Assembly: GCA_043807585.1 (NCBI GenBank)
Contig: JAZDFV010000002.1
Coordinates: 25,581-89,580 of the forward strand
Direction of reading: 5' to 3'
Length of the DNA stretch: 64,000 nucleotides
From: Candidatus Jorgensenbacteria bacterium
GTDB taxonomy: Bacteria; Patescibacteriota; Minisyncoccia; UBA6257; GWB1-50-10
The first letter of the stretch is position 1, and each line of letters starts with the position of its first letter. Position numbers and translations under genes: made by a program. Below, one piece after another: positions 1 to 62,706 of the stretch. The notes beneath the pieces are model-generated. The model saw only the letters and a list, made by a program, of their open reading frames with translations, was not told the origin of the DNA and did no database searches.

Positions 1-2583
1 GCGGACCTCTTGAAGGGGAAACAGGGCCGGTTCCGGCAGAATCTCCTCGGGAAGCGGGTGGACTATTCCGGCCGCTCCGTGATCGTGGTGGGTCCCGAGC
101 TTGCCCTGAACGAATGCGGGCTCCCCAAGACGCTCGCGCTCGAGCTCTTCCGCCACTTCGTTATCAATAAGATCATCGAGCGGGGCTTCGCCTACAACAT
201 CAAACAGGCGAACCGCTTCATCGAGCAGGGATCGCCCGAGGTGCTCGCCATCTTGGAGGAGGTGATCCAAGACAAGATGGTGCTCCTGAACCGCGCCCCG
301 ACACTCCACCGGCTCGGCATCCAGGCGTTCAGGCCCGTGCTGATCGAGGACCTCGCTATCCGGATTCCGCCACTGGTTTGCGCCGCTTTCAACGCAGATT
401 TTGACGGCGACCAGATGGCGGTACACCTGCCCCTCACCCTAGAGGCGCAATACGAGGCGAGCACTCTCATGGATGCGAGCAAGAACCTACTGAAGCCCGC
501 GAACGGTGACCCTATCGTCTCACCCTCGAATGATGTGGTGCTCGGTTGCTACTTCTTGACGCGGGAGATGCCTGGCGCGAAGGGAGAGGGGAAGATATTC
601 GGGTGCCACGCGGAGGTGGAGTTTGCCTACGAGTTGGGCGCTATCGACATCAACGCAAAGATAACGCTCTGCGAAGGAAGGGAGCGTCTCGAGACCACCT
701 GCGGGCGCCTCATCTTCAACCGCGTGCTTCCCGAAGGGTTCGGGTTCGTGAATGAGCAGTTGGGGAAGAAGCTTCTCTCAAGGCTCGTGGCACGGCTCAT
801 TGACCAGTGCGGCATTGAATCCACCTACCGATACCTCGACCGCATCAAGAACCTTGGATTTGAATACGCGACTGTTTCCTCCGTCACGTGGGGGATGGCC
901 GACACCTTGACCCCAACTGATAAACCAAAGGTCATTGCCGAGGGTGAAGCGCGGGTGGCGCTTATCGAGTCGCAGTACGGCGAGGGGCTTTTGACCGACG
1001 AAGAACGCCGAGAGAAGGTGATCGGGGCGTGGACCGAGGTGCGTGATGAGATTGCGAAACTCGTGCCTAAGGTGCTCGACCCCAAGAACCCCATCTACTC
1101 GATCATTGATTCCGGCGCCCGCGGGAGCTGGGCACAATCACTCCAAATGATGGGTATGAAGGGGATGGTGATGGATACGAAGGGGGAGATCATCGAGCTC
1201 CCAGTTAAGTCCTCCTACAAGGATGGGCTCTCGGTCCTCGAGTACTTCATTTCCACCCACGGTGCCCGCAAGGGTTCCACTGACACGGCGCTCAAAACCG
1301 CGCAGGCGGGTTACCTCACGCGGCGGCTCGTGGATGTGGCGCAGGACCTCGTGATCCAAGAGGCGGACTGTAAATCGAACGAGGGCATTGAAGTGGTACG
1401 GAAGGAGGGCGAGGAGTTCAGCTATGCGTTCGGTGATCGGCTCTACTCACGCGCGAGCGTGGAGGATATCCGCATTGACCGAAAGCTCATCGTGCGGGCA
1501 GGAGAGGTCATCACCCGCGCCGCCGCAAAGGCGATCCAGGACTCCAAACTTGAGTCGGTGAATGTGCGCTCGCCCATCACCTGTAAGACGGTGGGTGGTA
1601 TCTGTGCCGCCTGCTACGGGTTTGATTTGAGCAAGAATCGTGTGGTGGAGGTAGGGGAGGCGGTGGGGATCGTGGCAGCGCAGTCCATCGGCGAGCCGGG
1701 TACCCAGCTCACGCTCCGCACATTCCACACGGGAGGTGTCGCCGGAGTGGACATCACGCATGGTTTGCCACGCGTTGAGGAAATTTTCGAGGCCCGTCCG
1801 CCGCGCGGGAAAGCCCCCCTCATCAAAGCCGATGGAGTGGTTGGGAGCATTGAGGAACGCGGACTTGTGCGGATAGTTAAGGTGAAACTCGCGGCCCCCC
1901 AGGGCAAGAAGACGAAGAAAACACTGGATGAGTATATGCTCCCAGCCGGCGCCACGCTCTACATGAAGGAAGGAGACAAGGTGAAGAAAGGAGACATGCT
2001 CTCGGAGGGCTCCCTCGATCTCCGTGAGCTTCTCGTGTACCGCGGTCTCCAGGCACTCCAGCACTACATTATCAACGAGATCCAGCGCATCTATATCTCG
2101 CAGGGTGCCGGCATCAACGATAAGCACATTGAGGTCATCGTGCGCCAAATGCTCTCGCGCGTGGTGGTGCGGGAGGCGGGCGACACGGAGTTTATGCCCG
2201 GTGACGTGGTGAACCGGTGGGAGTTCGTGCGGGTGAATCGGGAAATGCGCCGTCTGAAAAAACAGGGCGCGAAGGCGGTCCTGAAGGTCATGGGTATTAC
2301 CCGCGTGGCGCTTGATTCCTCAAGCTTTCTCTCCGCGGCGTCCTTCCAGGAGACGAGCCGGGTGCTCGTGGGGGCTGCGGTGGAAGGCCGCGTGGATCCG
2401 CTCCGTGGTTTGAAGGAGAACGTCATCATTGGGAAGCTCATCCCCGCCGGTACCGGCTTCCGCGGGATACCGCCTGAGGCAATCGAGGCGATGCGGCCGA
2501 AGCGCGAGGAAATTCCTCCCGCGGAAGAAGCTTTGCCGACTGGGGAAGCCCCGAAGATTATTGACGCATCCCCGAGTGCGTGA
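1..2583 (+). CDS. rpoC: DNA-directed RNA polymerase subunit beta' (C-terminal part; 5' end lies outside the window)
   Basis: The ORF translation carries the conserved beta' motifs NADFDGDQM and trigger-loop-like regions. The ORF continues upstream of base 1. Confidence 0.95.
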
Positions 2584-2758
2584 TACGGTTACGATTGCTA
2601 CGAATTACGAATTTGGTACGAATATACGAAACGCTCCGCTTCTCTACGAATTACTAATTTCTTACGAATATACGAAAACGACTTCACATCTTATTAACAA
2701 TTTCGTATATTCGTATACTTTTCGTATTTCGTAGCCCTTTGGTACTTTCGTATGTTTT
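2584..2758. repeat. TACGAA/TTCGTA word-palindrome element (tandem TACGAA words followed by tandem TTCGTA words)
   Basis: Repeated tacgaa units occur on the left and ttcgta units on the right. The element is near-identical to 4126-4236. Confidence 0.8.
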
Positions 2759-3190
2759 ATGAATATTGAGACAGAAACAGAGAATGGTACGCACTTCGAG
2801 GTATCCTACCTCGAGCGGAGTGAAGGTGCCGCCGGTCTCAAGGCCGCGATTGAGCGGCACCGCGGCCGCGTGATTGCGGAAAAACCGCTGGAGAAGGTGC
2901 GCCTTTCTTATCCGATAAAGAAGCAATCTTATGCGTTCTTGGGATGCGTGGAATTCACTATGGAACCAGCGGAGCTCACTGAATTCCAAGCGGAGCTTCG
3001 TCTGAACGGCGAGATGCTCCGGATGCTCCTGCACCGTGCGGAACATCCGGATGTAGGTTCCGCTAGGGAAACCCCAACGCCCGCTGCGGCGCCGAGAGTT
3101 CAGCCCACGCGCCCCGCGCGGCAAAAGGAAGAACCTCCCATTCTCACTAACGAGGCGCTTGAAAAGAAGATAGAAGAGATACTGCAGTAG
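2759..3190 (+). CDS. rpsF: 30S ribosomal protein S6
   Basis: The 143-aa ORF has an S6-like sequence. It sits in the conserved rpsF-ssb-rpsR arrangement. Confidence 0.8.
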   Translation: MNIETETENGTHFEVSYLERSEGAAGLKAAIERHRGRVIAEKPLEKVRLSYPIKKQSYAFLGCVEFTMEPAELTEFQAELRLNGEMLRMLLHRAEHPDVGSARETPTPAAAPRVQPTRPARQKEEPPILTNEALEKKIEEILQ

Positions 3191-3262
3191 GTTTACGATG
3201 ACTATGACTATAACTATGACTGGAATTCGTGGTCATCGTCATTGTCATTAGTCATTGTTTTT
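3191..3262. repeat. ATGAC/GTCAT word-palindrome upstream of ssb
   Basis: Words gactatgac x3 are followed by gtcatcgtcattgtcattagtcatt. Confidence 0.7.
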
Positions 3263-3300
3263 TGTTACTATTTACCTACAGGAAACAATAGACAAAATAT

Positions 3301-3828
3301 ATGAATCTAAATAAAGTTTTTTTAATTGGGCGTCTCACTGCCGATCCCCAGCTCCGAACCACTACGGCTGGCCAGTCGGTGGCAAGTTTTTCCGTGGCGA
3401 CGAACCGCACATGGACCAACAAGCAGGGAGAACGGCAGGAGGACGTGCAGTTCCACAATGTGGTGCTGTGGGGGCGGCAGGCGGAGATCGCGAACCAGTT
3501 CCTCCGGAAGGGGAGCATGGTGATGGTGGAGGGGCGCCTCCAGAACCGCAGCTGGCAGGATAAGCAGGGGCAGAACCGCACTACGACCGAGGTTGTTGGC
3601 GAGCGCATCCAGCTCGGACCCCGCGGCGCGGGTGTGGGTGGCCCTTCGACGGGTTCGACAGGCACTTCGGCCGTGAGCTCAGTGCCGAACGGCTCACCGC
3701 AGGCAAGTTCAGGATTTGGAAACAAACAGGGTTCTCCTGTAGAGGGCACTGATGAGGCAAAGGAGGAGCCGCTCCCCGAGATCAACGTGGATGATGGTGA
3801 AGTAAAACCAGAGAACATCCCGTTTTAA
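3301..3828 (+). CDS. ssb: single-stranded DNA-binding protein
   Basis: An OB-fold SSB sequence is followed by a Gly/Ser-rich linker and an acidic C-terminal tip (DDGEVKPENIPF). Confidence 0.9.
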   Translation: MNLNKVFLIGRLTADPQLRTTTAGQSVASFSVATNRTWTNKQGERQEDVQFHNVVLWGRQAEIANQFLRKGSMVMVEGRLQNRSWQDKQGQNRTTTEVVGERIQLGPRGAGVGGPSTGSTGTSAVSSVPNGSPQASSGFGNKQGSPVEGTDEAKEEPLPEINVDDGEVKPENIPF

Positions 3829-3924
3829 ACCACCATGACCATGACAATAACAATGACAGGGGAAGGGAAGGAAAGAAATTATTTTCCTGCTCGTCATAGT
3901 CATCGGTCATCGTTATCGTAATTT
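3829..3924. repeat. ATGAC/GTCAT word-palindrome downstream of ssb
   Basis: catgaccatgacaataacaatgaca ... tcgtcatagtcatcggtcatcg form an inverted word array. Confidence 0.7.
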
Positions 3925-4125
3925 ATGCGACAGTGCGTTTTTTGTTCCCAGAACGCGAAGACCATTGATTACCGGAGCGTGGACGTGCTCCGCCGTTTTG
4001 TTTCCGGCCAGGCAAAGATCATAGATCCGCGCCACACGGGGGTCTGCGCCAAGCACCAGCGGCGTCTCGCACGCGCGGTGAAGCGCGCGCGCATCATGGG
4101 GCTACTACCCTTCGTGCGCAGATAG
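3925..4125 (+). CDS. rpsR: 30S ribosomal protein S18
   Basis: The 66-aa S18 sequence includes [13 protein letters not shown]...[11 protein letters not shown]. Confidence 0.9.
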
Positions 4126-4236
4126 CTACGAAATACGAATTTTTTACGAATTTACGAAAACGATTTATAACAGTTTCGTATATTCGTATTATTTCGTATT
4201 TCGTAGCCCTTAGGTATTTTCATATTTCGTAGCGCT
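4126..4236. repeat. TACGAA/TTCGTA word-palindrome element (second copy)
   Basis: About 100 nt are near-identical to 2620-2750 (acgaat.tacgaaaacga...tttcgtatattcgtat..tttcgtatttcgtagccctt.ggta). Confidence 0.8.
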
Positions 4237-4758
4237 ATGGACCTCATACTTTTCAACTTTATTCATTCGTTTGCGGAGAAGTGGTCACTCGTTGACTGGG
4301 GTAGCGTGCTCGTCGCCCAGTACCTCCCCTACGCGATGGGAATCGCCGCTGTCGTGTTTCTCTTTCGTATGGAGCCGTGGAAGGTGCGGGTAGAGGCCTT
4401 TTTAGCAACCGCGCTTTCTCTTCTCCTCGCGCGCGGGTTGCTCACGGAGCTCATCCGTTTCCTTTATGACCGCCCGCGGCCGTTTGTGGAACTCGGGTTC
4501 ACGCCGCTCATCTCGGAGAACAGTGCTTCGTTCCCCTCGGGGCACGCGGCGTTTTTCTTTGCCCTCTCCGCTGTGATTTTCTCCGTGAACCGCACGTGGG
4601 GGTGGTGGTTCCTCGGTCTCTCGCTCTTGAACGGCATTGCGCGCGTCTACGCTGGCGTGCATTGGCCGAGCGACATCCTCGCGGGCGCGGCGGTAGGTGT
4701 CTTCTCGTTCCTCGCGGTGCAGAAGCTTCTCAAACGGGCGCCGGAGCGCGCTTCTTAA
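4237..4758 (+). CDS. PAP2-family membrane phosphatase
   Basis: PAP2 motifs PSGH and SR...H...D are present (RVYAGVHWPSDIL), along with several TM segments. Confidence 0.75.
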   Translation: MDLILFNFIHSFAEKWSLVDWGSVLVAQYLPYAMGIAAVVFLFRMEPWKVRVEAFLATALSLLLARGLLTELIRFLYDRPRPFVELGFTPLISENSASFPSGHAAFFFALSAVIFSVNRTWGWWFLGLSLLNGIARVYAGVHWPSDILAGAAVGVFSFLAVQKLLKRAPERAS

Positions 4759-4822: not shown

Positions 4823-5101
4823 TTACACAAAAAACGACAGTAGCTTGAGTTTTATTTTTTCTACCTCGCTCGCGTCCAAATTGTCCGAAGCGTTGAGTTT
4901 CAGATCGCGGATGGCCCGCGCGGCCTCTTCTTTTGAAATACCCTCGGAGAGATAGCGGCCGAAAACCGCCTTCACATACTCCTGCTCCTCTGGGGAGAGC
5001 GCCGAAATCTGCCGGAGGAGCATATCAAGCTTCTCTCTTGAGAGGTGTTTCCCGCCGGAAGGCGAGAGAAAGTCAAAGATACCCATATCAATAAATATCA
5101 A
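4823..5101 (-). CDS. hypothetical small protein (92 aa), AT-rich
   Basis: It is an ORF in the AT-rich islet with no recognised domain. Confidence 0.4.
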   Translation of the reverse strand: MIFIDMGIFDFLSPSGGKHLSREKLDMLLRQISALSPEEQEYVKAVFGRYLSEGISKEEAARAIRDLKLNASDNLDASEVEKIKLKLLSFFV

Positions 5102-5141
5102 GTATTAAGAATCAAATGTCAAATATGTTGTAGGCATACTT

Positions 5142-5165
5142 TCTTATTCGCGCGAATAAGAAAGT
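5142..5165. promoter_or_regulatory. 24-bp perfect palindrome tttcttattcgcgcgaataagaaa (core ATTCGCGCGAAT)
   Basis: The palindrome is perfect, and the same core recurs at 19558 and 32978 upstream of genes. Confidence 0.5.
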
Positions 5166-5234
5166 ACGAGATTTTGAGAGATTGAGAAGCATAAAATAGG
5201 TAAATGCCGAACCACAAGTTTTTTCTTTGGATCG

Positions 5235-6281
5235 CTAAGCGTTCCTTTTATCCCGCTTAGCGGGAATGGCGGCAAATTCTTTCAAATATTTTTTGACCTT
5301 TCCAATAAATAAATCAATTAATAGTATAAAAATTATTAAAAGCAAAATTACCAATAGTTTATGCGTTACCCAAAAGGCATTGATATATATCCAAATATCA
5401 TAGAAAAATCTGTCAAACCAATTGTAATCAGGCGAGGGGAATCTTATTACTTCTTTATTAGCTTTATCGCCATTAACATCTACTTTGATATAGTGATAAA
5501 AATAATGGTCGGGGTCCGTTCCCATTAGTTCAGAACCAGCGCCGCCGGTAATAATATAATTTATTCCATTTTTTGTTTCATCGAAATAAGCATGAATATG
5601 GGAAGCAAAAACAGTATCAACTTTATACTTTTCCATTAAATTAATAAATTCTTGAGCATTCTGTTTGTCGGATAGGGAATGATTGGTGTTGGGACGGGGG
5701 TCAAAAGCTGGCACATGTAAAAAGACAAATTTATGTTGATAGTTTCTCTGCAATTGTTCCTCCAGCCATTTCATCTGCACCGCATCAATTCTTGTTTCAT
5801 TAGCATCGTCTAAGACAACGAATAAAGAATTGCCATAATCAAATGAATAATAAAATTTGCCAAAAATATCAAAATAGTTTTCTGCCCCGCCCTCTCGGAT
5901 ATCGTGATTGCCAACCGCGACCAAAAACGGTGTCTGCTCGTTTTTTATCATATTGTAAAAGATCCGGTATTTTGCTTTTTCACCGTCATACACCAAATCC
6001 CCAACATCAATGGCAAAAGTATAGTGGTTGTTGTCAATATCTTTCAGAATTTTACTAAATATTTTGAAGCTATTTTTATTATCGCCCATCACGGCAAAGC
6101 TGAAGTTGTCTGAAGGCGCGGAAGAATGAATTTTATCAATTTGTTTTTGATTATAATTGCCCGGGCCAACCGGCAAATAATCGTTTAGGCCAATGGTTAT
6201 TAGCAAAATAGCAATGACAACAACGGCAGCAATATGACGCTTTTTAGAGAAATATTTTTTAAAATTATCTTTTAATGACAT
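5235..6281 (-). CDS. membrane-anchored calcineurin-like metallophosphoesterase
   Basis: Phosphoesterase motifs GD, GDLVYDG, GNHD and ASHIH are present, with N- and C-terminal hydrophobic segments. The start was chosen at the internal Met (MSLKDN) because the longer ORF runs into the tRNA-like fragment. Confidence 0.7.
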   Translation of the reverse strand: MSLKDNFKKYFSKKRHIAAVVVIAILLITIGLNDYLPVGPGNYNQKQIDKIHSSAPSDNFSFAVMGDNKNSFKIFSKILKDIDNNHYTFAIDVGDLVYDGEKAKYRIFYNMIKNEQTPFLVAVGNHDIREGGAENYFDIFGKFYYSFDYGNSLFVVLDDANETRIDAVQMKWLEEQLQRNYQHKFVFLHVPAFDPRPNTNHSLSDKQNAQEFINLMEKYKVDTVFASHIHAYFDETKNGINYIITGGAGSELMGTDPDHYFYHYIKVDVNGDKANKEVIRFPSPDYNWFDRFFYDIWIYINAFWVTHKLLVILLLIIFILLIDLFIGKVKKYLKEFAAIPAKRDKRNA

Positions 6282-6317
6282 ATGTTTGTGGGACGCTGAG
6301 CGTCCCGATAACAACGC

Positions 6318-6354
6318 TAAGCGTTGTGCCCGGGGTGGGGGTCGAACCCACACG
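6318..6354 (-). other. degenerate tRNA 3'-half-like fragment (T-arm plus acceptor 3' strand)
   Basis: The minus-strand sequence GTGGG-TTCGACC-CCCAC-CCCGGGC-A looks like a tRNA 3' half. It shares gaacccacacgg with the fragment at 9046-9115. Confidence 0.5.
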
Positions 6355-6363
6355 GCCTTGCGA

Positions 6364-6630
6364 TCACAGGAGTTCTTCAAGCCGTTCGCGTTCCTCGTTG
6401 ATCAGTTCTTGCCATGTGAACGTGCTTTTCCCGCACAGAAATTCCCGCTTCATTTTTTGGTTGTTGTAGAAGAAATTTATCCACGCCCTGCCTTCGGTCG
6501 CGAGATTCACAAAATTTGCTAGCTCTTGGTCGTTCGCCCTGCTGAACAATCTCATCAATTCGCCTCGCTCGATCCCTCCAAGGGTCGAATTTCTTACAAT
6601 GGTTTCAAGTTTGTATAAGTTCGATTCCAT
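6364..6630 (-). CDS. hypothetical protein (88 aa), translationally coupled to the upstream large gene
   Basis: The ORF lies 5 nt after the stop of the 6636..9044 gene, and the region is AT-rich. Confidence 0.4.
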   Translation of the reverse strand: MESNLYKLETIVRNSTLGGIERGELMRLFSRANDQELANFVNLATEGRAWINFFYNNQKMKREFLCGKSTFTWQELINEERERLEELL

Positions 6631-6635
6631 GTTGG

Positions 6636-9044
6636 TTATTTTTCCGGCGATAGGATTTTGTTGTAGGCCTTGAGGAAAAGCACGCCAAGGTTTTTGTCCG
6701 GAGCGACGTAATTTTTGAAATCCTTGTTATTTTTGAAGAGGTTGCCCGCTTTAGCCCAAAGTTCCTGCCATTTTATATTCTTGCCGCTTCGTATCTCATT
6801 GTTGAGCATCTTGAGAAGCTGGTCATTCACCAATTTTACCCCAGTTCCTTTTGTCGAGATGATGTGAGCGTTCGGCGCGCGTTCGAGAACCGCTGCCATG
6901 TTGTTATACCCGCCGCACGAGCCGAGCGATACTATTTTTGCGATTGGAGGTATTCTCTCGATTGTTTTATGGGCGTGATAGCTGTGCCCGCGATGAACTA
7001 CCACGATTGTTTCTATATGTTTCTGCGCGAGAATCTCGTCTATCTTTTTTGGACCCTCGTCCTCATAACTTGGACGGTTCGCATATATTTCGACTTTCTT
7101 TCCGATTCCTTGGGAAACGATCCGCACGTATTCTTTTTTTGCTTCTATGCGCCATTCCGGACTGCCGGCATATTGTGAAAGAAAATTTTTGAACGACCCA
7201 TCGCCGTCTTTGTCGTTATAGAAAAAATATTGCTGGATGTTCGTTCCGTCTTTGTTGAAGAGGTCTTTTGAGGGGATTTCAGTTAGGTTCTGAAGTTTAT
7301 ATTTCTCCGACATTTCGTGTATCCATTCCTTGTTTGCTATAGCTTTCTCGCCAAACATGCCGCTCAAAAGTCCGTAGAGCGTTTTTCCCTCTTCGCTGTT
7401 TTCATTTTTTGCGCGTTCGTATTCGTCTTTGATTTTATCCTGAAACACTTCCAATATTTTTTTGTCTTTCACTATACCAAAGATTTCAGCGACGGTTGTG
7501 GCTTGCATGAGCTTATCTCCCTCTTTCTCTATATTAGAAATAGATCTTTCGAGGACGGTTTTACGCGCGGTTTCGTCCATAGTGTTCAAAAAATCATCCA
7601 ATCTGTTAAAACTAGCGCAGAGTTTTATCAATGTTCTGAATTTATTGTAGCCGTTTTGCTCAAGCAATTGATCGCCGGAGACGTGTTCACTTTTCATTTT
7701 CTCCACAAATCTATTGAACAAACCATTGAACGATGAGGTAAACAACTCCTCATCCCCATAGGTCATGAGAAGGTAGAGTTTCTGTGAAGAATGGTTTTCA
7801 ACCGATTTGAAACGCACGGGGTCCGTTGCTTCATGCAGGTCATTTATTTGCCTTACTTCTTTCAGCACCATCGTCTTTAGATATTTATCAGCTATTTCAC
7901 TTCCAAGGTGGTCCGGACGACTTTTAATCTCCATTAGTTTTTCTAGGAATTTTCCATCGTTTTTTGCGATATTGGCCGTTTCCTCAAGGCTCGTATTTTT
8001 TCTTACGATTTCATCGGTTAGTGCACACATTTTTTCTTGAATGTCGGGCGCGTATGTTGATTTTTTAATTTTTGACAATGTCTGTATGAACGGATCTTTG
8101 CTTTCGTTAAGTATTTTATTCACTTCTCTCTCAATGCCTTTTTCATTATCGATTGTATTGTACGGATCTATAATACCTTCTGGAAATTGCTTGATTGCAT
8201 GCTCAATCATTTCCCTTGCATCGGTAGCAGACGCAAGATTATCTGCGTGTCTTAAAACTGCCCACGGTTCAGTGAAAGCCACTCTCTCAACTATTTTCTT
8301 TCCCCACGGTGTGTTTACAAAATTCTCTGCATGGAAAATTATTGTTGGTGCAGTATTTATTTGCGTTGCCGCTTTTTCTAGAATTTTTTGCGCGTATGGT
8401 TGTGTAATAAAACGGTCTGCAAATTCAAAGGCACCCCAAGGGTCGAAATCTGCCGCTTTTTCTATTATTTTTTCTGCGTAGGGCTCATCTATAAAACGGT
8501 CGGCGAACTCAAGTACTAAGGAATGATTTGTTTTGATAGCTTGCTCTACAACTCGTTTGAGAATATCTTTTCCATTTGGGATGTTTTTATAGTTTTCCGC
8601 ATAACGGAGTGCGCCATAACATCTAGAATAGGGAGGGGGTTGGAATCGCTGCGGATCTAGCATCCCTGCACTCTCATTAACAGCTCCCTCAATGATTTTG
8701 TATGCCCATGGTTTGTACTCGTAGCTATCCGCGACCTCAAGCGCATCAATTGGTTGAAGTCTTGCTAATTCTGCGTACGCTTGTTCATCCAATGAACGTT
8801 TTCCTTCAATCTCCTGTTCGTGGAATCTTGTATATTTGCTGTGCGCAGATTCTGGCCGATCCCTCATCTCCACGATCGAGAGGGTGGTAATGAGGGTAAG
8901 CGCTTTAATGACCAAGCCGCTTTTTTCACGGATTCGCCCGAGTATCGTTTTCTCTTCGGTCTCCAACTTCTCAACGCCCTTTTCCGCGGCGTTTTCTTGA
9001 ATTTCGTTCCCTTCCGGTGAATCGTTTTGTTTTTCGAAATCCAT
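6636..9044 (-). CDS. large helical-repeat (HEAT/TPR-like) protein with a C-terminal putative CHAT (caspase-like) peptidase domain
   Basis: About 38-aa repeats (ADRFI..PYA.KI.EKAA.FDPWGAFE) are followed by a His/Cys dyad-like VVVHRGHSYH ... IVSLGSCGGYN. The start was chosen at MDFEKQN because the longer ORF overlaps tRNA-Leu. Confidence 0.6.
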   Translation of the reverse strand: MDFEKQNDSPEGNEIQENAAEKGVEKLETEEKTILGRIREKSGLVIKALTLITTLSIVEMRDRPESAHSKYTRFHEQEIEGKRSLDEQAYAELARLQPIDALEVADSYEYKPWAYKIIEGAVNESAGMLDPQRFQPPPYSRCYGALRYAENYKNIPNGKDILKRVVEQAIKTNHSLVLEFADRFIDEPYAEKIIEKAADFDPWGAFEFADRFITQPYAQKILEKAATQINTAPTIIFHAENFVNTPWGKKIVERVAFTEPWAVLRHADNLASATDAREMIEHAIKQFPEGIIDPYNTIDNEKGIEREVNKILNESKDPFIQTLSKIKKSTYAPDIQEKMCALTDEIVRKNTSLEETANIAKNDGKFLEKLMEIKSRPDHLGSEIADKYLKTMVLKEVRQINDLHEATDPVRFKSVENHSSQKLYLLMTYGDEELFTSSFNGLFNRFVEKMKSEHVSGDQLLEQNGYNKFRTLIKLCASFNRLDDFLNTMDETARKTVLERSISNIEKEGDKLMQATTVAEIFGIVKDKKILEVFQDKIKDEYERAKNENSEEGKTLYGLLSGMFGEKAIANKEWIHEMSEKYKLQNLTEIPSKDLFNKDGTNIQQYFFYNDKDGDGSFKNFLSQYAGSPEWRIEAKKEYVRIVSQGIGKKVEIYANRPSYEDEGPKKIDEILAQKHIETIVVVHRGHSYHAHKTIERIPPIAKIVSLGSCGGYNNMAAVLERAPNAHIISTKGTGVKLVNDQLLKMLNNEIRSGKNIKWQELWAKAGNLFKNNKDFKNYVAPDKNLGVLFLKAYNKILSPEK

Positions 9045-9045
9045 A

Positions 9046-9115
9046 TTTTGTGTGGTGCCCGAGGTGGGAATCCCAGCCTTCGCCTGACTACGGACGGGCA
9101 GGGAACCCACACGGT
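9046..9115 (-). other. tRNA-like 3'-end fragment abutting tRNA-Leu
   Basis: The minus-strand sequence ends ...GATTCCCACCTCGGGCACCA, which resembles the tRNA-Leu 3' end GATTCCCTCCTCGCCCA. It shares ccgtgtgggttc with the 6318-6354 fragment. Confidence 0.45.
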
Positions 9116-9197
9116 GTGGGCGAGGAGGGAATCGAACCCTCATGGGTTGCCCCACACGATTTTGAGTCGTGCGCGTATACCGTTCCGCCACTCGCCC
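9116..9197 (-). tRNA. tRNA-Leu (anticodon CAA)
   Basis: Manual fold: acceptor GGGCGAG/CTCGCCC, anticodon stem CACGA/TCGTG with loop CTCAAAA, a long variable arm and T-arm GAGGG-TTCGATT-CCCTC. Confidence 0.85.
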
Positions 9198-9343: not shown

Positions 9344-10201
9344 ATGGCAAGAGTAATCGCCATCTTCAACCAGAAGGGGGGCGTGGGGAAAACTACGACC
9401 TCCATGAACCTCTCCGCGTACCTCGCGATGCGCGGCAAGAAAACGCTCCTCATTGATTTTGATCCGCAGTTCAACGCGACCATCGGCCTCGGGGTCACGC
9501 ATGCGCCGGACGAGACCGTCTACCACGCGCTCCTCGCGGGGCAGGACGTGGAGCGGGTGGTGAAACCCACCTATCTCACCCACTTCCACTTGGCGCCCTC
9601 CTCTGCGGACCTCGCGGGAGCACTTATAGAACTCGTTTATCTCCCGGACCGCGAGCAGTATCTCCAACACTTTGTGGAGAAGGTACGCGACCGCTACGAT
9701 TTCATTTTTATCGATCTTGGGCCCAACCTAAACCTCCTCACGGTGAACGGTCTTGTGGCGGCCGACGAGGTCATCGCTCCCATCCAGTGCGAGTATTTCA
9801 GCTTGGAGGGATTGAGCCAGCTCCTCCAAACCATCACCCTCGTGAGGGAGAATCTGGAGCATCCGCTTAAAGTCACGGGAGCGCTCCTCACTATGTACGA
9901 CAAACGGGAACGCCACTCCCGTGAGATCGCGCGCGAGGTGCGGCGGCGTTTCCCGCACAAAGTATTTGATGTGGAAATCCCGCGCTCGGTGGCGCTCGCG
10001 GAGGCACCCCACTACAAGAAACCAATCATGCTCTATGCGCCGCTCTCGCCCGGCGCCTTGGCCTATGAGGCGCTTGCCGATGAGGTGTTGCGGGAGGCGT
10101 ACGGTGTTCCCACGGCGGGGAGCGTACCGCCCGCGCCACCCATGCCAGCGGATTATCCACAATATCCCCGACTTGACCCCGTTAGAGACAGCCCGCCCTA
10201 A
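9344..10201 (+). CDS. parA: ParA/Soj chromosome-partitioning ATPase
   Basis: The ORF carries a deviant Walker A (NQKGGVGKTTT) and ParA-family sequence. The start was taken at MARVIAIF. Confidence 0.85.
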   Translation: MARVIAIFNQKGGVGKTTTSMNLSAYLAMRGKKTLLIDFDPQFNATIGLGVTHAPDETVYHALLAGQDVERVVKPTYLTHFHLAPSSADLAGALIELVYLPDREQYLQHFVEKVRDRYDFIFIDLGPNLNLLTVNGLVAADEVIAPIQCEYFSLEGLSQLLQTITLVRENLEHPLKVTGALLTMYDKRERHSREIAREVRRRFPHKVFDVEIPRSVALAEAPHYKKPIMLYAPLSPGALAYEALADEVLREAYGVPTAGSVPPAPPMPADYPQYPRLDPVRDSPP

Positions 10202-10247
10202 GGGTCCTTTGGACCGCGCTTGCGCGCGGGCGCGGTCTCTAACGGGG
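10177..10247. repeat. CCGTTAG-TIR element copy A
   Basis: ccccgttagagac ... gtctctaacgggg is a perfect 13-bp TIR enclosing a GC-rich palindromic core. Confidence 0.8.
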
Positions 10248-14466: not shown

Positions 14467-14510
14467 TCAATATTGATTTGATGAAACCGCCCTCAGTCAC
14501 CGGTGAGAGT

Positions 14511-14528
14511 GCTATGCTGTAGCATAGC
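14511..14528. promoter_or_regulatory. palindromic operator-like site GCTATGCTgTAGCATAGC (copy 1 of 3)
   Basis: It is an 18-bp palindrome with one mismatch, and the same palindrome occurs at 14611 and 15111. Confidence 0.55.
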
Positions 14529-14610
14529 GCCTGACTTGACCTTCATCTTCTTTCCATCCCGTTTCTTCTTTCCATCCCGCCTCCTCTTTTTCCATCCTGC
14601 CTTCCTGCCC

Positions 14611-14628
14611 GCTATGCTATAGCATAGC
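14611..14628. promoter_or_regulatory. palindromic operator-like site GCTATGCTATAGCATAGC (copy 2)
   Basis: It is a perfect 18-bp palindrome about 30 nt upstream of the TrpR-like gene. Confidence 0.55.
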
Positions 14629-14655
14629 AGCATGCTATACTAGTTTTGTGAATTT

Positions 14656-15108
14656 ATGAACAAAAAAGTCGCCGACAAGACGAACGAGATGAAGAAGGAA
14701 AAAAACGGGGTGATGCCGCTCGTCAGCGATTATTCTTCCCGGACAGAGTGGGAAACCGCTTGCTGGCGGAAGCTCCTCCAATCCAAAGAATTACTCCGAT
14801 TACTCGTTACTTCTCACGAACGTCATAACTTGGTAATGCGGGCCGCGGCTTTAGACCGACTTATTGCCGGTAAAAGCTACAAGCAAATTGGTAGAGAACT
14901 ATGGCTTTCGCCCCAAACCATCAGCGGTATCAAAAAAGCTCTAAAGGAAAAGAGCTATCAGAGCTATCAGAGCTATCAGAGCTATCTGGAGCGGAGTAAA
15001 AAAGAACGAAAAAAGAGAAAATACAGCTTCAATTCCCTCCCTGCCAAAGCAAGGTCTCGCGGCCGGCCTCACCGCACAAAGTACGGGACGATTTATCTGC
15101 CCTTCTAA
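14656..15108 (+). CDS. TrpR/YerC-YecD-like small DNA-binding protein
   Basis: An HTH region (SYKQIGRELWLSPQTISGIKKA) resembles the Trp-repressor/YerC family. It contains an SYQSYQSYQSY run encoded by a 9-nt tandem repeat. Confidence 0.6.
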   Translation: MNKKVADKTNEMKKEKNGVMPLVSDYSSRTEWETACWRKLLQSKELLRLLVTSHERHNLVMRAAALDRLIAGKSYKQIGRELWLSPQTISGIKKALKEKSYQSYQSYQSYLERSKKERKKRKYSFNSLPAKARSRGRPHRTKYGTIYLPF

Positions 15109-15128: not shown

Positions 15129-15589
15129 GGGACAGATGAGTTTATTTATCAAGGAGGGATTTGCGGGCGAAACCGACTAAAACCGCATCCATCCTCCTTC
15201 GCTCCAACTTTTCGTCGGAGTTTCGGAAGGACAAGCAGCCGCGCCCTCCTTGCCTTCGCTCAATCCTCGGCAGGTGGGCCTGCCCGTCCGAAGCTGCAGC
15301 GGAGGAGGGTCCGCCGCAGAAATTCAGGCAATTTATAACCCCGCTCAATAGAGCCATCCCTGCCTGCCGCCCGCCCGTCGCCTGCCTGCCGGTAGGCAGG
15401 GTCGGCAGGACAGGCAGGTACAACGCAGGCCAATAATTAATCAAGGCGTACTTGTGCACCGCTCATCTTTTGGAGGATTGCCCCAAGGGTGAGGAGGATC
15501 GGTTCCGACCTCGCCTCTTGACAAGTCAAGGTTCCTCCCTATACTTATCAATTGTGATTAGCAACAAAAGGTCGTTGGTGCTAACAACC

Positions 15590-15696
15590 GATCCGAAACC
15601 ACGAATCCATCCGAATGCTCCGAATGAATCCGAATGTTTCGTAGCAATTTGTAGATTCGGATGTGTTCGTAGATTAGGATCGCGAAAGCGAAGCGC
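15590..15696. repeat. CCGAATG/CATTCGG word-palindrome upstream of groES
   Basis: ccgaatgctccgaatgaatccgaatg is followed by ttcggatg..ttcgtagattagg. Confidence 0.6.
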
Positions 15697-15990: not shown

Positions 15991-16000
15991 TCGCGACAAG

Positions 16001-16127
16001 CACCAAATCCCAAGCACCAAATCCCAAATAAACTCCAATCGCTGAAATCTTGGTACAATAATTGAGACGGTTTTGAATTTGGAATTTGAGATTTATTTGT
16101 AATTTGGAATTTGTGGTTTGGAATTTC
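16001..16127. repeat. CCAAAT/ATTTGG word-palindrome element (copy upstream of groEL)
   Basis: caccaaatcccaagcaccaaatcccaaat ... ttggaatttgagatttatttgtaatttggaatttgtggtttggaatttc; the same family occurs at 50641 and 56311. Confidence 0.75.
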
Positions 16128-20508: not shown

Positions 20509-20546
20509 TTATCACATTAAATCGCGACCGCGATTTAATGTGATAA
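20509..20546. repeat. 38-bp near-perfect palindrome ttatcacattaaatcgcgaccgcgatttaatgtgataa
   Basis: It is palindromic and has a near-identical copy at 21153-21190, on the other side of the PaaX-like gene. Confidence 0.8.
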
Positions 20547-20570: not shown

Positions 20571-21152
20571 TTAGAGGTGGAAATGGTGTTTTAACTTCTC
20601 CGCACCTTCGAAATTGCCGACCTCTAAAATGAGAACATTATTCCGATCAATCTCAAAAACACTGCAGATAAAATCTATTTCATTCTCACACTCATAAGGG
20701 GTAATAAACACGCTCTTTTGGAGCGGATAAAATCCCAAATCTTTTACTTTAGCTCGTAATGCATTTCTCGCATTCTTTTGGTAGTCGGGTATATCGAATG
20801 TGACAAGTCGCCATTTCCCGTCCCATGACCGCTCTTCCAATTTCATTTGGTCGAGATCGTAGGTGAGTATCTTATTCTTTCCCAGTTTGGTGAGCGTGAT
20901 TTTTATCTTTCCGTCCGGCAATTGAACATAGTCAATGAGTTCCCTGTCCTGGAGCCTTTTGAGGTCCTGAAGAAACCTTTCTTTCCGTATTTTCTTGTTC
21001 TTGAGATATTGTTTTATCAGTTTCCTTACTATAAGTGCGCCGCTTGTCGGTGAAATGGTGCCGATGAGGAGAACGCCGCCGGCCGCGAGAACGGTTTTTA
21101 GAACGTGATAGGGTTTGGAATTTTTCCTCATCTTTGCGACCATAGCTTTCAT
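20571..21152 (-). CDS. membrane-anchored PaaX-like protein (C-terminal Cas2-fold PaaX_C-like region), AT-rich
   Basis: The C-terminal region WDGKWRLVTFDIPDYQK..R..LR..VKDLGFYPLQKSVFITP resembles a PaaX C-domain. One N-terminal TM segment is predicted. Confidence 0.5.
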   Translation of the reverse strand: MKAMVAKMRKNSKPYHVLKTVLAAGGVLLIGTISPTSGALIVRKLIKQYLKNKKIRKERFLQDLKRLQDRELIDYVQLPDGKIKITLTKLGKNKILTYDLDQMKLEERSWDGKWRLVTFDIPDYQKNARNALRAKVKDLGFYPLQKSVFITPYECENEIDFICSVFEIDRNNVLILEVGNFEGAEKLKHHFHL

Positions 21153-21190
21153 TATATCACATTAACTCTCGGTCGCGATTTAATGTGATA
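21153..21190. repeat. second copy of the 38-bp palindrome (tatatcacattaactctcggtcgcgatttaatgtgata)
   Basis: See 20509-20546. Confidence 0.8.
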
Positions 21191-21257
21191 CAACAGGATT
21201 TGAAGAGGGGTTGAGGAACCGGTGAGGTTTGCGCTACAATGACGTTTGTGCGAACAA

Positions 21258-25378: not shown

Positions 25379-25440
25379 ACGATAAGACAAGAACGAGGGG
25401 CACCAAAACGGTGCCCCTTGTGCTTTTTTGTTCGGGAGGG

Positions 25441-25518
25441 GTACACCCCGTTAGAGACAAGCCGCCCCTTGGCGGCTGTAGCCCCGCCTTTGGCATGGCG
25501 GTCTCTAACGGGGTACAC
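25441..25518. repeat. CCGTTAG-TIR element copy B
   Basis: gtacaccccgttagagac ... gtctctaacggggtacac is a perfect 18-bp TIR. Confidence 0.8.
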
Positions 25519-30866: not shown

Positions 30867-31090
30867 AAGATCCCGCGCAGCGGGATAAAGAATTATGAAC
30901 AAAGAGATCATCTACTGTGAGCAGTGCTATCAAAGCGAGGTGACTTAAATAAAACGCTATGACATGTCATAGCGCCATACCATGGTTATAGCACCGAGAG
31001 AATCTAAGAAAAGTTAGGATATGACACAAGAGACCAGAACCTACCAGAACTGTCCCGCTACGCGGGATCTCGCGAAGCGAGACAAACACT

Positions 31091-32890
31091 ATGTCTGAAT
31101 CAGAAACAATAGTTTGTCAGAATTGTCATAGTTCCTTCGTCATTGAATCGGAGGATTTTACGTTCTACGAGAAAATAAAAGTCCCGCCGCCGACGTGGTG
31201 CCCGGAGTGCGACAGTGCAAAGAGAATGACTTGGAGAAACGAGAGATCTTTGTATTGGCGCGATTGCGGTTTGTGCGGTAAGAAAACACTCTCGATGTAT
31301 TCAAAAGAAAATCCTTTTACTGTTTATTGTCATAAATGTTGGATATCGGATAAGTGGGACTCATTAGTATTCGGGAGAGATTATGATTTTCAGAAAGATT
31401 TTTTCACGCAATTTTCAGAACTCCAAAAAAGCGTACCCCGCGCCTCGGTTCTCCAATATGGGACCAGTGTAAATTGCGAATTTACAAACTACACCAGAAA
31501 CACAAAAAATGTCCTCCTAGCCTATTCGGTTTCTACCGGTGAAAATATATATTATTCATTCACTGTAGATTGGTCTAAAGACGCGTTGGATTCTTTAATG
31601 TTGAAGAATTCCGAATTGATATTTGAAGGATTTAATTCGGATCATTGTTATAATTCTCAATTTCTCGTAGATTGCCGCGATTGCACCGAATCATCGTATT
31701 TGTATGATTGTGTGAACTGCCAGAATTGTTTTATGTCGGTGAACCTTAGAAACAAACAGTTCGTTTTTTATGGAAGACAGCTTTCGAAAGAAGAATATAG
31801 CAAAGCAATTTTAGAAATTGATATCGGAAGTTTTGAGACGAGGGGAAGATTAAAAGAAGAATTTCATAATGTTATTTTGCAAACAATTCATAAGTATGGA
31901 GATGTAGTTAAGGTTGTTAACTGCACCGGCAACTATCTTTCGAATTGCAAAAACGTGAAAAATTCATATAGCGTGTATGATTCCGAGAACGTAAGAAACA
32001 CCATTCGCGCCTTGAAAGCGAGAGACATCAGGAGTGTTTTTAGCTGCGGAGAAGGGAGCGAACTTATTTATAGCGGGATTGTCGGTGGCAAAACCAGTTC
32101 TAATATAAAATTTTTTGCAAGTGCGGATGTGCTACGCGAATCGCAATACACCGATTGGTGTTTAAGTTCATCAAATCTCTTCGGCTGCATCGGCCTTCGC
32201 AACAAGCAGTACTGCATCCTTAACAAGCAATACACGAAGGAGGAATATGAAGCCCTTGTACCCCGCATCATCGACCACATGAACACCATGCCCTATGTAG
32301 ATACCAAGGGCAGGATATACAAATATGGCGAGTTCTTCCCCCCGGAATTGTCTCCCTTCGCCTACAACGAAACCATCGCACAGGAGTATTTCCCCCTGAC
32401 CAAGGATAAAGCTATTCAACAGGGCTACCGCTGGAGGGACGCGGATACGAGAGATTACAAAATAACCAAGAGACCGGAGGATCTCCCCGACCACATCAAA
32501 GATGTAGAGGATGCAATATTGAAAGAAACCATCCAATGCATGCACCACCCTTCGGCAGGCTCAGGGCAGGCCGCCTGCAATCACCAATGCACCACCGCCT
32601 TCAAGGTTATCCCAGAAGAACTTGCCTTCTACCGCAGAATGAACCTCCCGCTCCCACGTCTTTGCCCCAACTGCCGGCACTACGAACGCCTAAAGCAGCG
32701 GAATCCCCTGAAGCTCTGGCACCGCACCTGCCAGTGTGCGGGAGGAAAAAGCGAGAACGGTGTCTACGAGAACACCATAACCCACCCACACGGCACCGGC
32801 CACTGCCTAAACGAATTCGAGACCAGTTACGCTCCAGAGAGAAAGGAAATCGTGTACTGCGAGAGTTGTTATAATACTGAAGTGGTATGA
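31091..32890 (+). CDS. Cys-rich protein (599 aa) with homologous N- and C-terminal double zinc-ribbon modules flanking internal Cys/Asn-rich repeats
   Basis: Multiple CxxC pairs are present. The termini are related (F.I..E..FY......P..CP.C ... LW.R.C), and there is an internal repeat (CFMSVNLRNKQFVFYGRQLSKEEYSKA / CIGLRNKQYCILNKQYTKEEYEAL). Confidence 0.7.
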   Translation: MSESETIVCQNCHSSFVIESEDFTFYEKIKVPPPTWCPECDSAKRMTWRNERSLYWRDCGLCGKKTLSMYSKENPFTVYCHKCWISDKWDSLVFGRDYDFQKDFFTQFSELQKSVPRASVLQYGTSVNCEFTNYTRNTKNVLLAYSVSTGENIYYSFTVDWSKDALDSLMLKNSELIFEGFNSDHCYNSQFLVDCRDCTESSYLYDCVNCQNCFMSVNLRNKQFVFYGRQLSKEEYSKAILEIDIGSFETRGRLKEEFHNVILQTIHKYGDVVKVVNCTGNYLSNCKNVKNSYSVYDSENVRNTIRALKARDIRSVFSCGEGSELIYSGIVGGKTSSNIKFFASADVLRESQYTDWCLSSSNLFGCIGLRNKQYCILNKQYTKEEYEALVPRIIDHMNTMPYVDTKGRIYKYGEFFPPELSPFAYNETIAQEYFPLTKDKAIQQGYRWRDADTRDYKITKRPEDLPDHIKDVEDAILKETIQCMHHPSAGSGQAACNHQCTTAFKVIPEELAFYRRMNLPLPRLCPNCRHYERLKQRNPLKLWHRTCQCAGGKSENGVYENTITHPHGTGHCLNEFETSYAPERKEIVYCESCYNTEVV

Positions 32891-35454: not shown

Positions 35455-35456
35455 TT

Positions 35457-35495
35457 AAAAAACCGTCCTGAGTTTACCGAAGGGCGGTTTTTTTG
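35457..35495. terminator. bidirectional terminator hairpin between the convergent T4CP-like gene and efp
   Basis: aaaaaccgtcctgagtttaccgaagggcggttttttt forms the hairpin. Confidence 0.7.
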
Positions 35496-36110
35496 TTATG
35501 CTTTCTCTACCCGCTCAACATACTCTCCAGTCACGGTATTCACGCGCACCACGTCGCCTTCGTTGATGAAGAGGGGGACGTTCGCTTTCGCGCCGGTCTC
35601 GAGCGTGACCGATTTTGTGCCGCCCTGCGCGGTGTCACCGCGGATGGCCGGTGGCGCCTCCGTAACTTTCAGATCCACCTTCACGGGGAGCTCAATGTTG
35701 ATGATCTTTTCGCCGAATTTGAACGCGGTAACCTCCGCATTTGCTTTGAGATATTGACCGGCGTCGCCCATCGCCTCGTCGGCGAGGGAAAACCGGTTGC
35801 CGGGCTTGCCAACCTCATGGAACCAGTATTCACCTCCCGCCTCGCCTTCGCGAGCTTGGCGAGTCGAGGCTGGGTTATTGCGGTAAATGAAATTCACTTT
35901 TTGCCTTTCTATCTCAACCTCATAGAAGCTCTCGTTCTGATGAGCTGCGTAGTCCTGCACCTTGCCGGTGAGGAGGTTCTTGATCTTGAGCTGGGTGACC
36001 GGCTTCCGCTGCTGCATGCGGATGAAGGCGTACTCCAGGACCTCATAGGGATCCGGGTCCTCGTTCTTAGTGAAGATGGTGCCGGCTTTGAGTTCGTTGT
36101 AGGAAAGCAT
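35496..36110 (-). CDS. efp: elongation factor P (with an internal insertion of about 15 aa)
   Basis: It is an EF-P sequence with an extra NPASTRQAREGEAGG segment. Confidence 0.9.
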   Translation of the reverse strand: MLSYNELKAGTIFTKNEDPDPYEVLEYAFIRMQQRKPVTQLKIKNLLTGKVQDYAAHQNESFYEVEIERQKVNFIYRNNPASTRQAREGEAGGEYWFHEVGKPGNRFSLADEAMGDAGQYLKANAEVTAFKFGEKIINIELPVKVDLKVTEAPPAIRGDTAQGGTKSVTLETGAKANVPLFINEGDVVRVNTVTGEYVERVEKA

Positions 36111-39403: not shown

Positions 39404-39489
39404 TGGCTTCAATTTGTACGTATATGCGTACAAATTGAAGCATCGCGGTTTTGTGAGGTGCGGTGGTATAATTGCTGAAAGTCGTTAGT

Positions 39490-62700: not shown

Positions 62701-62706
62701 AACAAT

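Follow-up and report, generated by a model that had tools for sequence, protein, structure and literature searches.

The rpsF-ssb-rpsR locus and its word arrays

The 64-kb stretch of DNA analysed here (hereafter the window) belongs to a metagenome-assembled genome of Candidatus Jorgensenbacteria (Paceibacterota, Patescibacteria), with a G+C content of about 55-60% in coding DNA and A+T-rich intergenic gaps. It carries rpsF, ssb and rpsR between the 3′ part of rpoC and a PAP2-family gene, an order that is kept in most of 73 Paceibacterota loci. All four gaps of this locus are filled by inverted word arrays, in which tandem copies of a short word are followed by tandem copies of its reverse complement. 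Here, we describe these arrays and their counterparts in the rest of the window (A1 to A11; Table 1), in related genomes and in metagenomes, and then consider what kind of element they may represent.

The TACGAA/TTCGTA arrays that a first-pass annotation of this DNA had placed on either side of the operon are both present, as are the ATGAC/GTCAT arrays around ssb and a third TACGAA array ahead of tuf. A1 is a composite, whose array (2597-2752) contains seven TACGAA words on the + strand (2599-2676) and then five TTCGTA words (2702-2752); it can be divided into two left arms (2599-2630 and 2645-2676), a right arm (2702-2733), a tail, AGCCCTTTGGTA, and an extra TTCGTA word (2747-2752). The A4 array (4127-4231) is simpler, with four TACGAA words (4127-4158) followed by four plus one TTCGTA words (4175-4231), the last of which (4226-4231) comes after the tail AGCCCTTAGGTA. 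The homology that had been proposed between the upstream and downstream elements is borne out, as 2644-2758 and 4126-4236 are identical in 90 of 121 alignment columns, including the non-palindromic tail AGCCCTT(T/A)GGTA; because this tail is shared, the two lie in the same orientation and are direct copies.

The two flanks of ssb both read ATGAC-ATGAC-ATAAC-ATGAC, followed at a distance by GTCAT arrays. The ATAAC variant occupies the third word slot in A2 as well as in A3, and the two are paralogues. The arms of an element do not mirror each other's word variants (A2/A3, A1b). The A2 dyad is followed by a T-run (3259-3267) and a promoter-like site, TTGTCA-18-TG-TACTAT (3242-3271), which is kept in the related locus L075 (conserved form TTGTCA-18-TGnTACTAT). 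When A2 was assessed as a terminator, TTGTTTTTTG was found after a stem that is A+U-rich, and A2 was not called by a consensus scan; a T-run is lacking after A1, A3 and A4. As single strands, the operon copies are predicted to fold with -24 to -40 kcal/mol and z-scores of -2.3 to -6.7 (A1, -39.5 kcal/mol, z -6.5; A2, -23.8 kcal/mol, z -3.7; A4, -36.7 kcal/mol, z -6.7).

The nested layout, with TACGAA words outside and ATGAC words inside, is real in the window genome and is not kept in its closest relatives. The bracketing of rpsF-ssb-rpsR is most likely a product of local duplication into neighbouring gaps (A2 to A3, A1 to A4) and not of design, and a parallel tendency is seen in the near relative L081, where one different word family is found in two adjacent gaps.

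Table 1. Genes, word arrays and further repeat families in the window
Feature	Position	Strand	Description
rpoC, 3′ part	ends 2583		upstream of rpsF
A1	2584-2758	.	composite TACGAA element; whole rpoC-rpsF gap
rpsF	2759-3190	+	bracketed gene
A2	3191-3300	.	ATGAC/GTCAT dyad (3198-3258); rpsF-ssb gap
ssb	3301-3828	+	bracketed gene
A3	3829-3924	.	ATGAC/GTCAT dyad (3835-3918); whole ssb-rpsR gap
rpsR	3925-4125	+	bracketed gene
A4	4126-4236	.	canonical TACGAA 4+4 dyad (4127-4205); whole rpsR-PAP2 gap
PAP2-family gene	4237-4758		downstream of rpsR
A5	15589-15682	.	ATCCGAA/TTCGGAT-type dyad; groES 5′ leader
A6	15997-16126	.	CCAAAT/ATTTGG dyad (period 7); whole groES-groEL gap
A7	38402-38499	.	AT-rich dyad word array (GAATT/TCAAAAT words); in frame within mnmA
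A8	39404-39600	.	composite arrays (GCTGAT / ATCAG; GTTATCAGTCATAA x2.6) and perfect small hairpin; mnmA-comEC gap
A9	50641-50770	.	CCAAAT/ATTTGG dyad; rpsG-fusA gap, within str operon; fold z -4.1
A10	53026-53154	.	TACGAA-family palindrome (words 53051-53126); fusA-tuf gap; fold z -3.7
tuf	53155-54354		downstream of A10
A11	56339-56461	.	CCAAAT/ATTTGG dyad; rplC-rplD gap; fold z -5.3
CCCGTTAGA/TCTAACGGG family	10178-10246, 25447-25512, 50001-50103, 55758-55875, 57112-57232, 59875-59977		hairpin family; single arms at 45255 and 55593
ACCCAGCACATAAAAGTA/TACTTTTATGTGCTGGGT family	57687-57792, 59089-59190, 60744-60830, 61357-61431		palindrome family; variants near 61990 and 63590

Word dyads across the window

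When a dyad is defined as at least three copies of a 5-mer followed by at least three copies of its reverse complement, nine are detected in the window. With this definition, none turned up in 30 block shuffles that preserved composition, or in the homologous str/S10/spc region of Escherichia coli (50 kb). TACGAA itself occurs 48 times in the window, against 25.0 ± 4.6 times in shuffles (maximum 35). These counts, like the folding scores, uphold the earlier impression that the arrays are unusual, non-random and hairpin-forming. At least five or six word families are found in the 64 kb, with a word period of 6-9 nt in both arms. A rough gene map gives 64 gaps, of which 46 are at least 50 nt long; ten of these 46 hold word dyads, all of them between co-directional genes and eight of them ahead of translation, chaperone or ssb genes. 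As had been pointed out, the dyads of the window lie mostly beside highly expressed genes; the neighbours in metagenomes, listed below, are functionally unrelated.

Several of the dyads lie downstream of recognizable promoters. A near-consensus promoter, TTGACA-16-TATACT (15518-15545), is located upstream of A5 at groES, and an inverted repeat resembling CIRCE (controlling inverted repeat of chaperone expression), TTAGCAACA-N9-TGGTGCTAA (15558-15588), is placed between this promoter and A5, an arrangement that is also found in L075. In the str operon, the rpsL promoter TTGACT-16-TATACT (49490-49517) is the only strong one. As these clear consensus promoters are situated ahead of the arrays and not within them, the groESL and str dyads are transcribed parts of their operons.

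The TACGAA family in metagenomes

A strict four-word pattern was used to scan metagenomes for the TACGAA family, and the four-word arm was found in at least 120 contigs, with G+C contents of 32-61%. The arm has the consensus TTCGTA-ww-TTCGTA-Annnw-TTCGTA-w-TTCGTA-G, that is, four slots with fixed spacing and consecutive words 7-8 bp apart, and the terminal G after the last word is present in 72% of arms among the matches listed. The inner spacer 'TATATT' is not conserved. Polarity is strict: TACGAA precedes TTCGTA in 38 paired arrays and the reverse order is seen in none. Elements in the window and in locus L024, as well as many metagenome copies, share the ends (G)CTACGAA ... TTCGTAG(C).

Complementarity in this family is confined to the words. 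In 26 dyads of the 4+4 type, the middle spacers pair at 22% of positions, compared with 45% in permutations, and pairing of the other spacers is not significantly above chance; across all word families, the two spacers of a pair are unequal in length in 39%.

Genes next to TACGAA arms include dnaE, ligA, secA, yidC, gap, tpi, mreB, ruvC, queA and those for RNase J, L16 and L17, among others. The 72 neighbour genes match 106 Pfam families, none of them more than twice, and translation is represented by L16 and L17 only. The metagenome contigs that bear TACGAA arms also hold dyads built from many other words. The first-pass annotation had tied its regulatory reading to conservation in relatives and to enrichment beside translation genes: the architecture and one element family are indeed conserved in relatives, but no association with translation genes was found. 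The repeats are not a control device for ribosomal-protein genes.

Turnover between related genomes

For comparison, we used related loci (L001-L081 and others, given here as L-numbers), with relatives reached via Ssb; an exact-sequence look-up of S18 for strain variants returned no record. In L081, coding DNA is 93-95% identical to that of the window and the A1 ortholog is about 95% identical save for a 35-nt indel, whereas the gaps corresponding to A2, A3 and A4 are only 37-46% identical, which is close to random, and hold unrelated word families. The replacement spans from stop codon to start codon, with a CACTAAT/CACGAAT dyad at the A2 site and an AAATCC(G/T)A / T(C/A)GAATTT dyad at the A3 site; A4 is replaced by another word family in L075 as well as in L081.

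The next relatives, L074 and L075-L080, have an Ssb that is 77% identical. In L074 the rpoC-rpsF gap is 22 nt long and A1 is absent, and in L075-L080 the ssb-rpsR gap is reduced to 18 nt. These last genomes do carry an A2 ortholog, of which the left arm is identical and the right arm has seven to eight GTCAT words, compared with four in the window. Six otherwise identical strains differ solely in the number and type of words in this GTCAT arm, giving gap lengths of 130, 131 and 137 nt.

More widely, the rpsF-ssb gap is bimodal across 71 relatives, being either at most 20 nt or about 80-210 nt long, and the rpoC-rpsF gap ranges from -8 to more than 300 nt in 68 relatives. Filled rpsF-ssb gaps contain several kinds of hairpin, some of them word dyads built from still other words. 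In loci L001-L073, 11 dyads were counted over 764 kb, six of them flanking rpsF or ssb, and the TACGAA layout is found between rpsF and ssb in L024 and between ssb and rplK in L035. Similar copies also occur at non-orthologous sites, in that the left 40 nt of A10 match an element ahead of the L075 groES at about 95% identity.

An orthologous site may lack an element, carry one, or carry one of another family, and such differences are seen even between near-identical genomes. From the replacement in L081, the empty gaps, the non-orthologous copies and the strain-level word counts, it follows that the words at a given site are not conserved, that copies move and that arms slip. As a separate observation on this locus, L075 has a gene for an rve-family (IS481/IS3-like) transposase (97-1098) directly upstream of rpsF, in the place of rpoC, and the conserved rpoC-rpsF linkage is therefore broken there.

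Copies inside mnmA

The window mnmA open reading frame (ORF; 37919-39403) contains a 98-nt dyad word array, A7, in frame. In comparison with solved structures of MnmA, the array inserts about 27 residues between the motifs GHYVR and KDQSYFL. In L203, which belongs to the same species as L075, a perfect canonical TACGAA 4+4 dyad (1905-1990) is in frame in the same MnmA loop, and L134 has a decayed TACGAA copy there. In a set of 18 orthologues, the loop is between about 13 and more than 90 residues long and the whole protein between 366 and 521 residues. Since an intact element can reside within the ORF of an essential gene, it is not an obligatory terminator, promoter or repressor site. Paceibacterota MnmA proteins (orthologues P0121-P0229) also have at least four further hypervariable insertion sites, which are low in complexity and rich in N, S, K and R, and these insertions may be translated AT-rich repeat insertions.

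Nature of the elements

On balance, we lean towards the view that the arrays are dispersed, selfish, DNA-level palindromic word repeats, and that any effects on gene expression are secondary. They would constitute lineage-wide dispersed palindromic DNA repeats, for which we use the term 'word palindromes', in Candidatus Jorgensenbacteria and other Paceibacterota/Patescibacteria. In an element, a 5-8-nt word is repeated 3-8 times in tandem and is followed by a variable centre and by the reverse-complement words; several families are present per genome, and the elements are placed between co-directional genes, in 5′ leaders and in protein loops that tolerate them. Its behaviour would be akin to that of Rickettsia palindromic elements (RPEs), repetitive extragenic palindromic sequences and bacterial interspersed mosaic elements (REP/BIME), MITEs (miniature inverted-repeat transposable elements) and foldback elements. 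Copying or conversion, both locally and between sites, would be carried out by a machinery that recognizes the words or the folded arm, and arms would be reshaped by slipped-strand mispairing. Elements located within operons are probably transcribed and folded into long imperfect hairpins, which may attenuate, process or stabilize the mRNA as a secondary effect and not as the reason for their existence; A2 is the best candidate for such an effect.

Several observations weigh against word palindromes being selfish DNA. Among arms with an ORF start within 80 nt, the outer end lies 3-12 nt from the start codon in 54 of 83 cases, and single arms face gene starts 33 times compared with 16 times for the other direction. 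From this proximity and direction, one might suspect a function in gene expression, or strong selection acting on the sites at which copies survive. No transposase, RAYT-like (REP-associated tyrosine transposase) or other mobilizing gene was found among the approximately 30 window ORFs scanned with Pfam. Target-site duplications were seen neither in comparisons of filled and empty sites nor in about 70 inspected copies. When the paired arms in L168 were considered as the ends of a composite transposon, only ordinary co-directional ORFs were found between them. The TACGAA pattern has no match in 2.9 million viral contigs, which therefore lend no support to a horizontally moving vector. In L093, copies on the same contig share their arms including the spacers and have unrelated centres, and are therefore not the obvious product of a unit that transposes whole. 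Finally, ssb in its first ~80 nt and rpsR in its last ~30 nt diverge more strongly from L081, and the replacement could instead be due to homologous recombination with a diverged allele.

A more specific version can be put forward tentatively, in which the arrays are the recognition ends of a new, Patescibacteria-specific mobile element of the foldback type, or of a process that copies from a hairpin template. Here, a putative enzyme would read words such as the four-slot TTCGTA arm and write or move palindromes into gaps and tolerant loops, thereby remodelling intergenic DNA at the time-scale of strain divergence.

We think it unlikely, although worth serious consideration, that the dyads are instead selected RNA hairpins, acting in attenuation or termination, as processing sites of the RNase III type or in stabilizing 3′ ends, and thereby setting the relative output of cistrons in highly expressed operons, in which case the word structure would merely be the way such hairpins arise. 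The location of the dyads within operons and downstream of promoters, the strong folding (z down to -6.7) and the preference for gaps ahead of translation, chaperone or ssb genes all fit this proposal. So does A2, with its T-run and promoter-like site kept in L075, as it takes the same position as a GC-rich hairpin in the rpsF-ssb gap of other Paceibacterota, where a conserved promoter-like TTTTAATG...TGCTAGAAT comes after it; in another Paceibacterota clade (L043, L047, L048, L052, L053, L064, L066, L069 and L072), the hairpin is long and the motif before ssb reads (T)TTTAGAGAGTTTTAATG-N6-8-TGCTAGAAT. About half of the filled rpsF-ssb gaps in Paceibacterota fold with z <= -3. However, selection on the sense-strand RNA should favour G:U pairs over A:C mismatches, and across 91 co-directional gaps there are 353 G:U pairs in the sense and 331 in the antisense orientation, with no difference in minimum free energy (Wilcoxon p = 0.75). 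This test gives no support for strand-specific RNA selection, and is compatible with young or strand-neutral hairpins. The non-complementary and often unequal spacers also speak against selected hairpins, as does the 38:0 polarity, which a hairpin does not require. A full dyad within the mnmA ORF would be harmful as a terminator, the 18-22-nt orthologous gaps show that the flanking genes do without the elements, and ordinary GC-rich terminators exist elsewhere in the window (25380-25434 and 35445-35505).

Less credible is the proposal that the arms are double-stranded-DNA binding arrays for one or a few proteins, with cooperative ribbon-helix-helix or nucleoid-associated proteins as candidates, set back to back to serve two flanks. 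This would account for the conservation of words and spacing with free spacers and centres, for arms that occur singly as well as in pairs, for the fixed polarity, for the outer ends near start codons and for the lack of strand asymmetry. Against it, the neighbouring genes have no common function, the word family at an orthologous gap switches between genomes with 93-95% identical coding DNA, canonical copies are in frame within mnmA, and words spaced 7-8 bp apart are not in helical phase; a very small genome would also have to encode a large number of cognate proteins for the at least six word families in ~64 kb. For the same reasons of neighbour diversity and of 37-46% identity in the L081 gaps, the single-regulator array for translation genes suggested by the first-pass annotation has to be given up, although recognition of the words by a protein is possible.

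We also doubt, to a slightly greater degree, that the arrays are a neutral mutational by-product, generated by inverted duplication or template switching together with slipped-strand mispairing in AT-rich spacers under reduced repair, with neither machinery nor function. Word gain and loss at the strain level in one arm only, the use of many words with one grammar and the unmirrored word variants would all be expected, and a similar (unit)n-(complement)n repeat is found in Lentinula mitochondrial DNA (PMC6679062). Such a process does not readily explain why four slots, fixed spacers and the terminal G are kept in at least 120 contigs with G+C contents of 32-61%, nor the near-identical copies at non-orthologous sites or the wholesale replacement between near-identical genomes.

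Right-arm words were also considered as sigma-70 hexamers, since promoter-like matches occur in A1, A2 and A4, and this was rejected, as consensus promoters lie outside the arrays, the 'TATATT' spacer is not conserved and a dyad is located within mnmA. A duplicated S6:S18 autoregulatory RNA, or another leader of the rpsF operon, as had been suggested initially, is refuted for practical purposes, as it is favoured by position only (one element in the rpsF leader, one in the rpsR trailer), whereas the window has no Rfam 15 match that reaches the gathering score and, with E-values up to 1 on 2400-4400, only sub-threshold chance matches to miRNA and snoRNA families, the leader element is absent from the 22-nt gap of L074, the trailer element is replaced in L081 and L075, and the same family is found at tuf, at the PAP2 gene, inside mnmA and beside dozens of unrelated genes.

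Comparison with known repeats

Rickettsia palindromic elements, reportedly described by Ogata et al. in 2000, are said to be about 100-150 nt long and to occur in intergenic regions as well as in frame within genes, at tolerated surface positions. To our knowledge, no transposase has been assigned to them. Word palindromes resemble them as dispersed palindromes of 100-150 nt with in-frame copies, here in mnmA of three genomes. They differ, in a comparison by description only, in that RPE arms are without tandem short words and RPE families are defined by similarity within Rickettsia, whereas word palindromes comprise many word families with strain-level variation in word number and a fixed polarity. 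Homology between the two is unlikely, given the differences in phylum, base composition and word structure.

REP/BIME sequences of enterobacteria and pseudomonads are mobilized by RAYT tyrosine transposases; they have a single stem of ~35 nt with terminal GTAG/CTAC and are strictly extragenic. Like these, word palindromes are imperfect palindromes in operon gaps that are co-transcribed, group into composites and differ from strain to strain, and the CTACGAA...TTCGTAG ends of the TACGAA element recall the terminal CTAC...GTAG. In contrast, their arms are word arrays with non-complementary spacers, and membership was rejected on account of the in-frame mnmA copies, which are incompatible with a strictly extragenic location. 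Correia elements and other bacterial MITEs are non-autonomous, ~100-150 nt long and bounded by terminal inverted repeats; their hairpins can serve as substrates for RNase III, and they may contain promoter-like hexamers; MITEs also have target-site duplications, related autonomous insertion sequences and shared internal sequence. The recurring terminal inverted repeats, the location next to genes and the co-transcription are similar, but copies of word palindromes have unrelated centres. MITE membership was rejected, as neither target-site duplications (see above) nor an autonomous partner was found (L168 pair, viral contigs).

Drosophila foldback (FB) transposons are kilobase-scale elements with repeat units of 10-31 bp. 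The likeness lies in inverted arms made of tandem short repeats, the length of which varies with repeat number, as in a foldback or palindromic variable-number tandem repeat; the GTCAT arm, for example, has four units in the window and seven to eight in L075-L080. FB elements are eukaryotic as well as kilobase-scale, and no evolutionary link is implied. Overall, descriptions of word palindromes as functionally RPE-like and foldback-like fit. The short tandemly repeated repetitive (STRR) sequences of cyanobacteria are intergenic tandem repeats of heptamers, with several families per genome. Word palindromes share the period of ~7 nt and the number of families, but STRR sequences are direct tandem arrays in another phylum, whereas word palindromes are inverted pairs of fixed polarity.

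The type I variable-number repeats of Lentinula edodes mitochondria consist of (unit)n followed by (complementary unit)n, vary between strains and have units added during replication (PMC6679062). They differ in residing in a fungal organelle and in having GC-rich units of 9-11 nt, and a nested central insertion of the Lentinula type, which predicts mirrored word variants, was rejected because A2/A3 and A1b show none. TIGR (tandem interspaced guide RNA) arrays have 36-nt units with two alternating repeats of 8-12 nt and 9-nt variable spacers, are repeated 5-15 times beside a gene for a Nop-domain protein, and TIGR-Tas systems are frequent in Patescibacteria (PMC12045711). Short-period arrays, the same bacterial group and being missed by standard repeat annotation are points in common; the assignment was rejected on the basis of the period of 6-8 nt, the inverted arms, the lack of variable spacers and the dispersal among housekeeping genes (rpsF, ssb, rpsR, tuf).

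Further repeat families and other features of the window

In addition to word dyads, the window contains a second dispersed hairpin family, with CCCGTTAGA ... TCTAACGGG stems and loops of 50-100 nt, of which seven pairs are found, chiefly in the gaps of ribosomal-protein operons. The family also occurs in the rpsF-ssb gaps of L003, L005, L012, L023, L028 and L033. Its hairpins have no Rfam match and are often preceded by ATGAAT, a possible short ORF starting MNPVR. A third family is a palindrome of ~105 nt with perfect 18-nt ends (ACCCAGCACATAAAAGTA ... TACTTTTATGTGCTGGGT), nearly identical copies of which lie between successive ribosomal-protein genes of the S10 operon, where the gaps measure 140-290 nt compared with ~10-30 nt in E. 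coli. The small palindromes GCTATGCTATAGCATAGC and GCTATGACATGTCATAGC recur at 14510-14629 and 30950-30975 and, in a related species, at 3430-3470 of L203. Direct-only word arrays (AAATCCGC / AAATCAGC, period ~10) are present at 62600-62701 and 39189-39273 and have no adjacent inverted partner; complementary GCTGATTT words are found at 39500-39560, and related words form dyads in L106, L162, L176 and L184.

The motif (T)AAGCGAAGCG, or the close variant GCGTTAGCGTAAGC, is located within ~10 nt upstream of the start codons of groES, tuf and, in L081, rpsF. The sites (window 15683-15696 and 53137-53154; L081 580-598; L075 10165-10187) are without a Shine-Dalgarno-like sequence, and the motif is possibly a signal for translation initiation or a small stem-loop. 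A perfect 9-nt tandem repeat, AGAGCTATC x4 (14951-14986), is in frame inside the ORF at 14656-15108, which encodes a Trp-repressor/YerC-like helix-turn-helix protein, and is translated as SYQSYQSYQSY. Perfect 18-nt inverted repeats, TTATCACATTAAATCGCG/CGCGATTTAATGTGATAA, at 20509-20546 and 21150-21195 flank a PaaX-like gene (20571-21152, - strand) and look operator-like or terminal-repeat-like.

Three islands of low G+C (36-44%, compared with 55-60% for the genome) are found at 5056-9190, 31091-32007 and 54920-55567. Large ORFs without Pfam domains are associated with them (851 amino acids, - strand, 6636-9191; 599 amino acids, 31091-32890), and an ORF of 161 amino acids (55061-55546) is inserted between rpsJ and rplC; the islands with these ORFs, including the rpsJ-rplC insertion, are possibly horizontally acquired. 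Ribosomal protein L3 (55876-56310) has only 144 residues, with a Pfam match limited to model positions 211-288, and appears to be without the middle portion of the usual bacterial L3.

Implications

A full-text literature search, the coverage of which excludes many papers in subscription journals, returned no description of such repeats in Patescibacteria/Parcubacteria and none of a TACGAA motif. In kind, word palindromes are dispersed palindromic repeats; as a class, they have apparently not been described before. Patescibacteria, also known as the candidate phyla radiation, have strongly reduced genomes of ~1 Mb, and yet in the lineage studied here palindromes of 100-200 nt are located in many gaps of the most highly expressed operons, and even inside mnmA, an essential tRNA-modification gene. 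The elements inflate apparent variation in protein length, as in MnmA, and can mislead gene callers and searches for regulatory motifs; in the present case, they mimicked an operon-specific regulator site. They also yield hypervariable, strain-resolving markers. If word palindromes are indeed mobile or enzymatically propagated, they would represent a new class of repeat in a major uncultured part of the bacterial tree and a strong driver of intergenic turnover.

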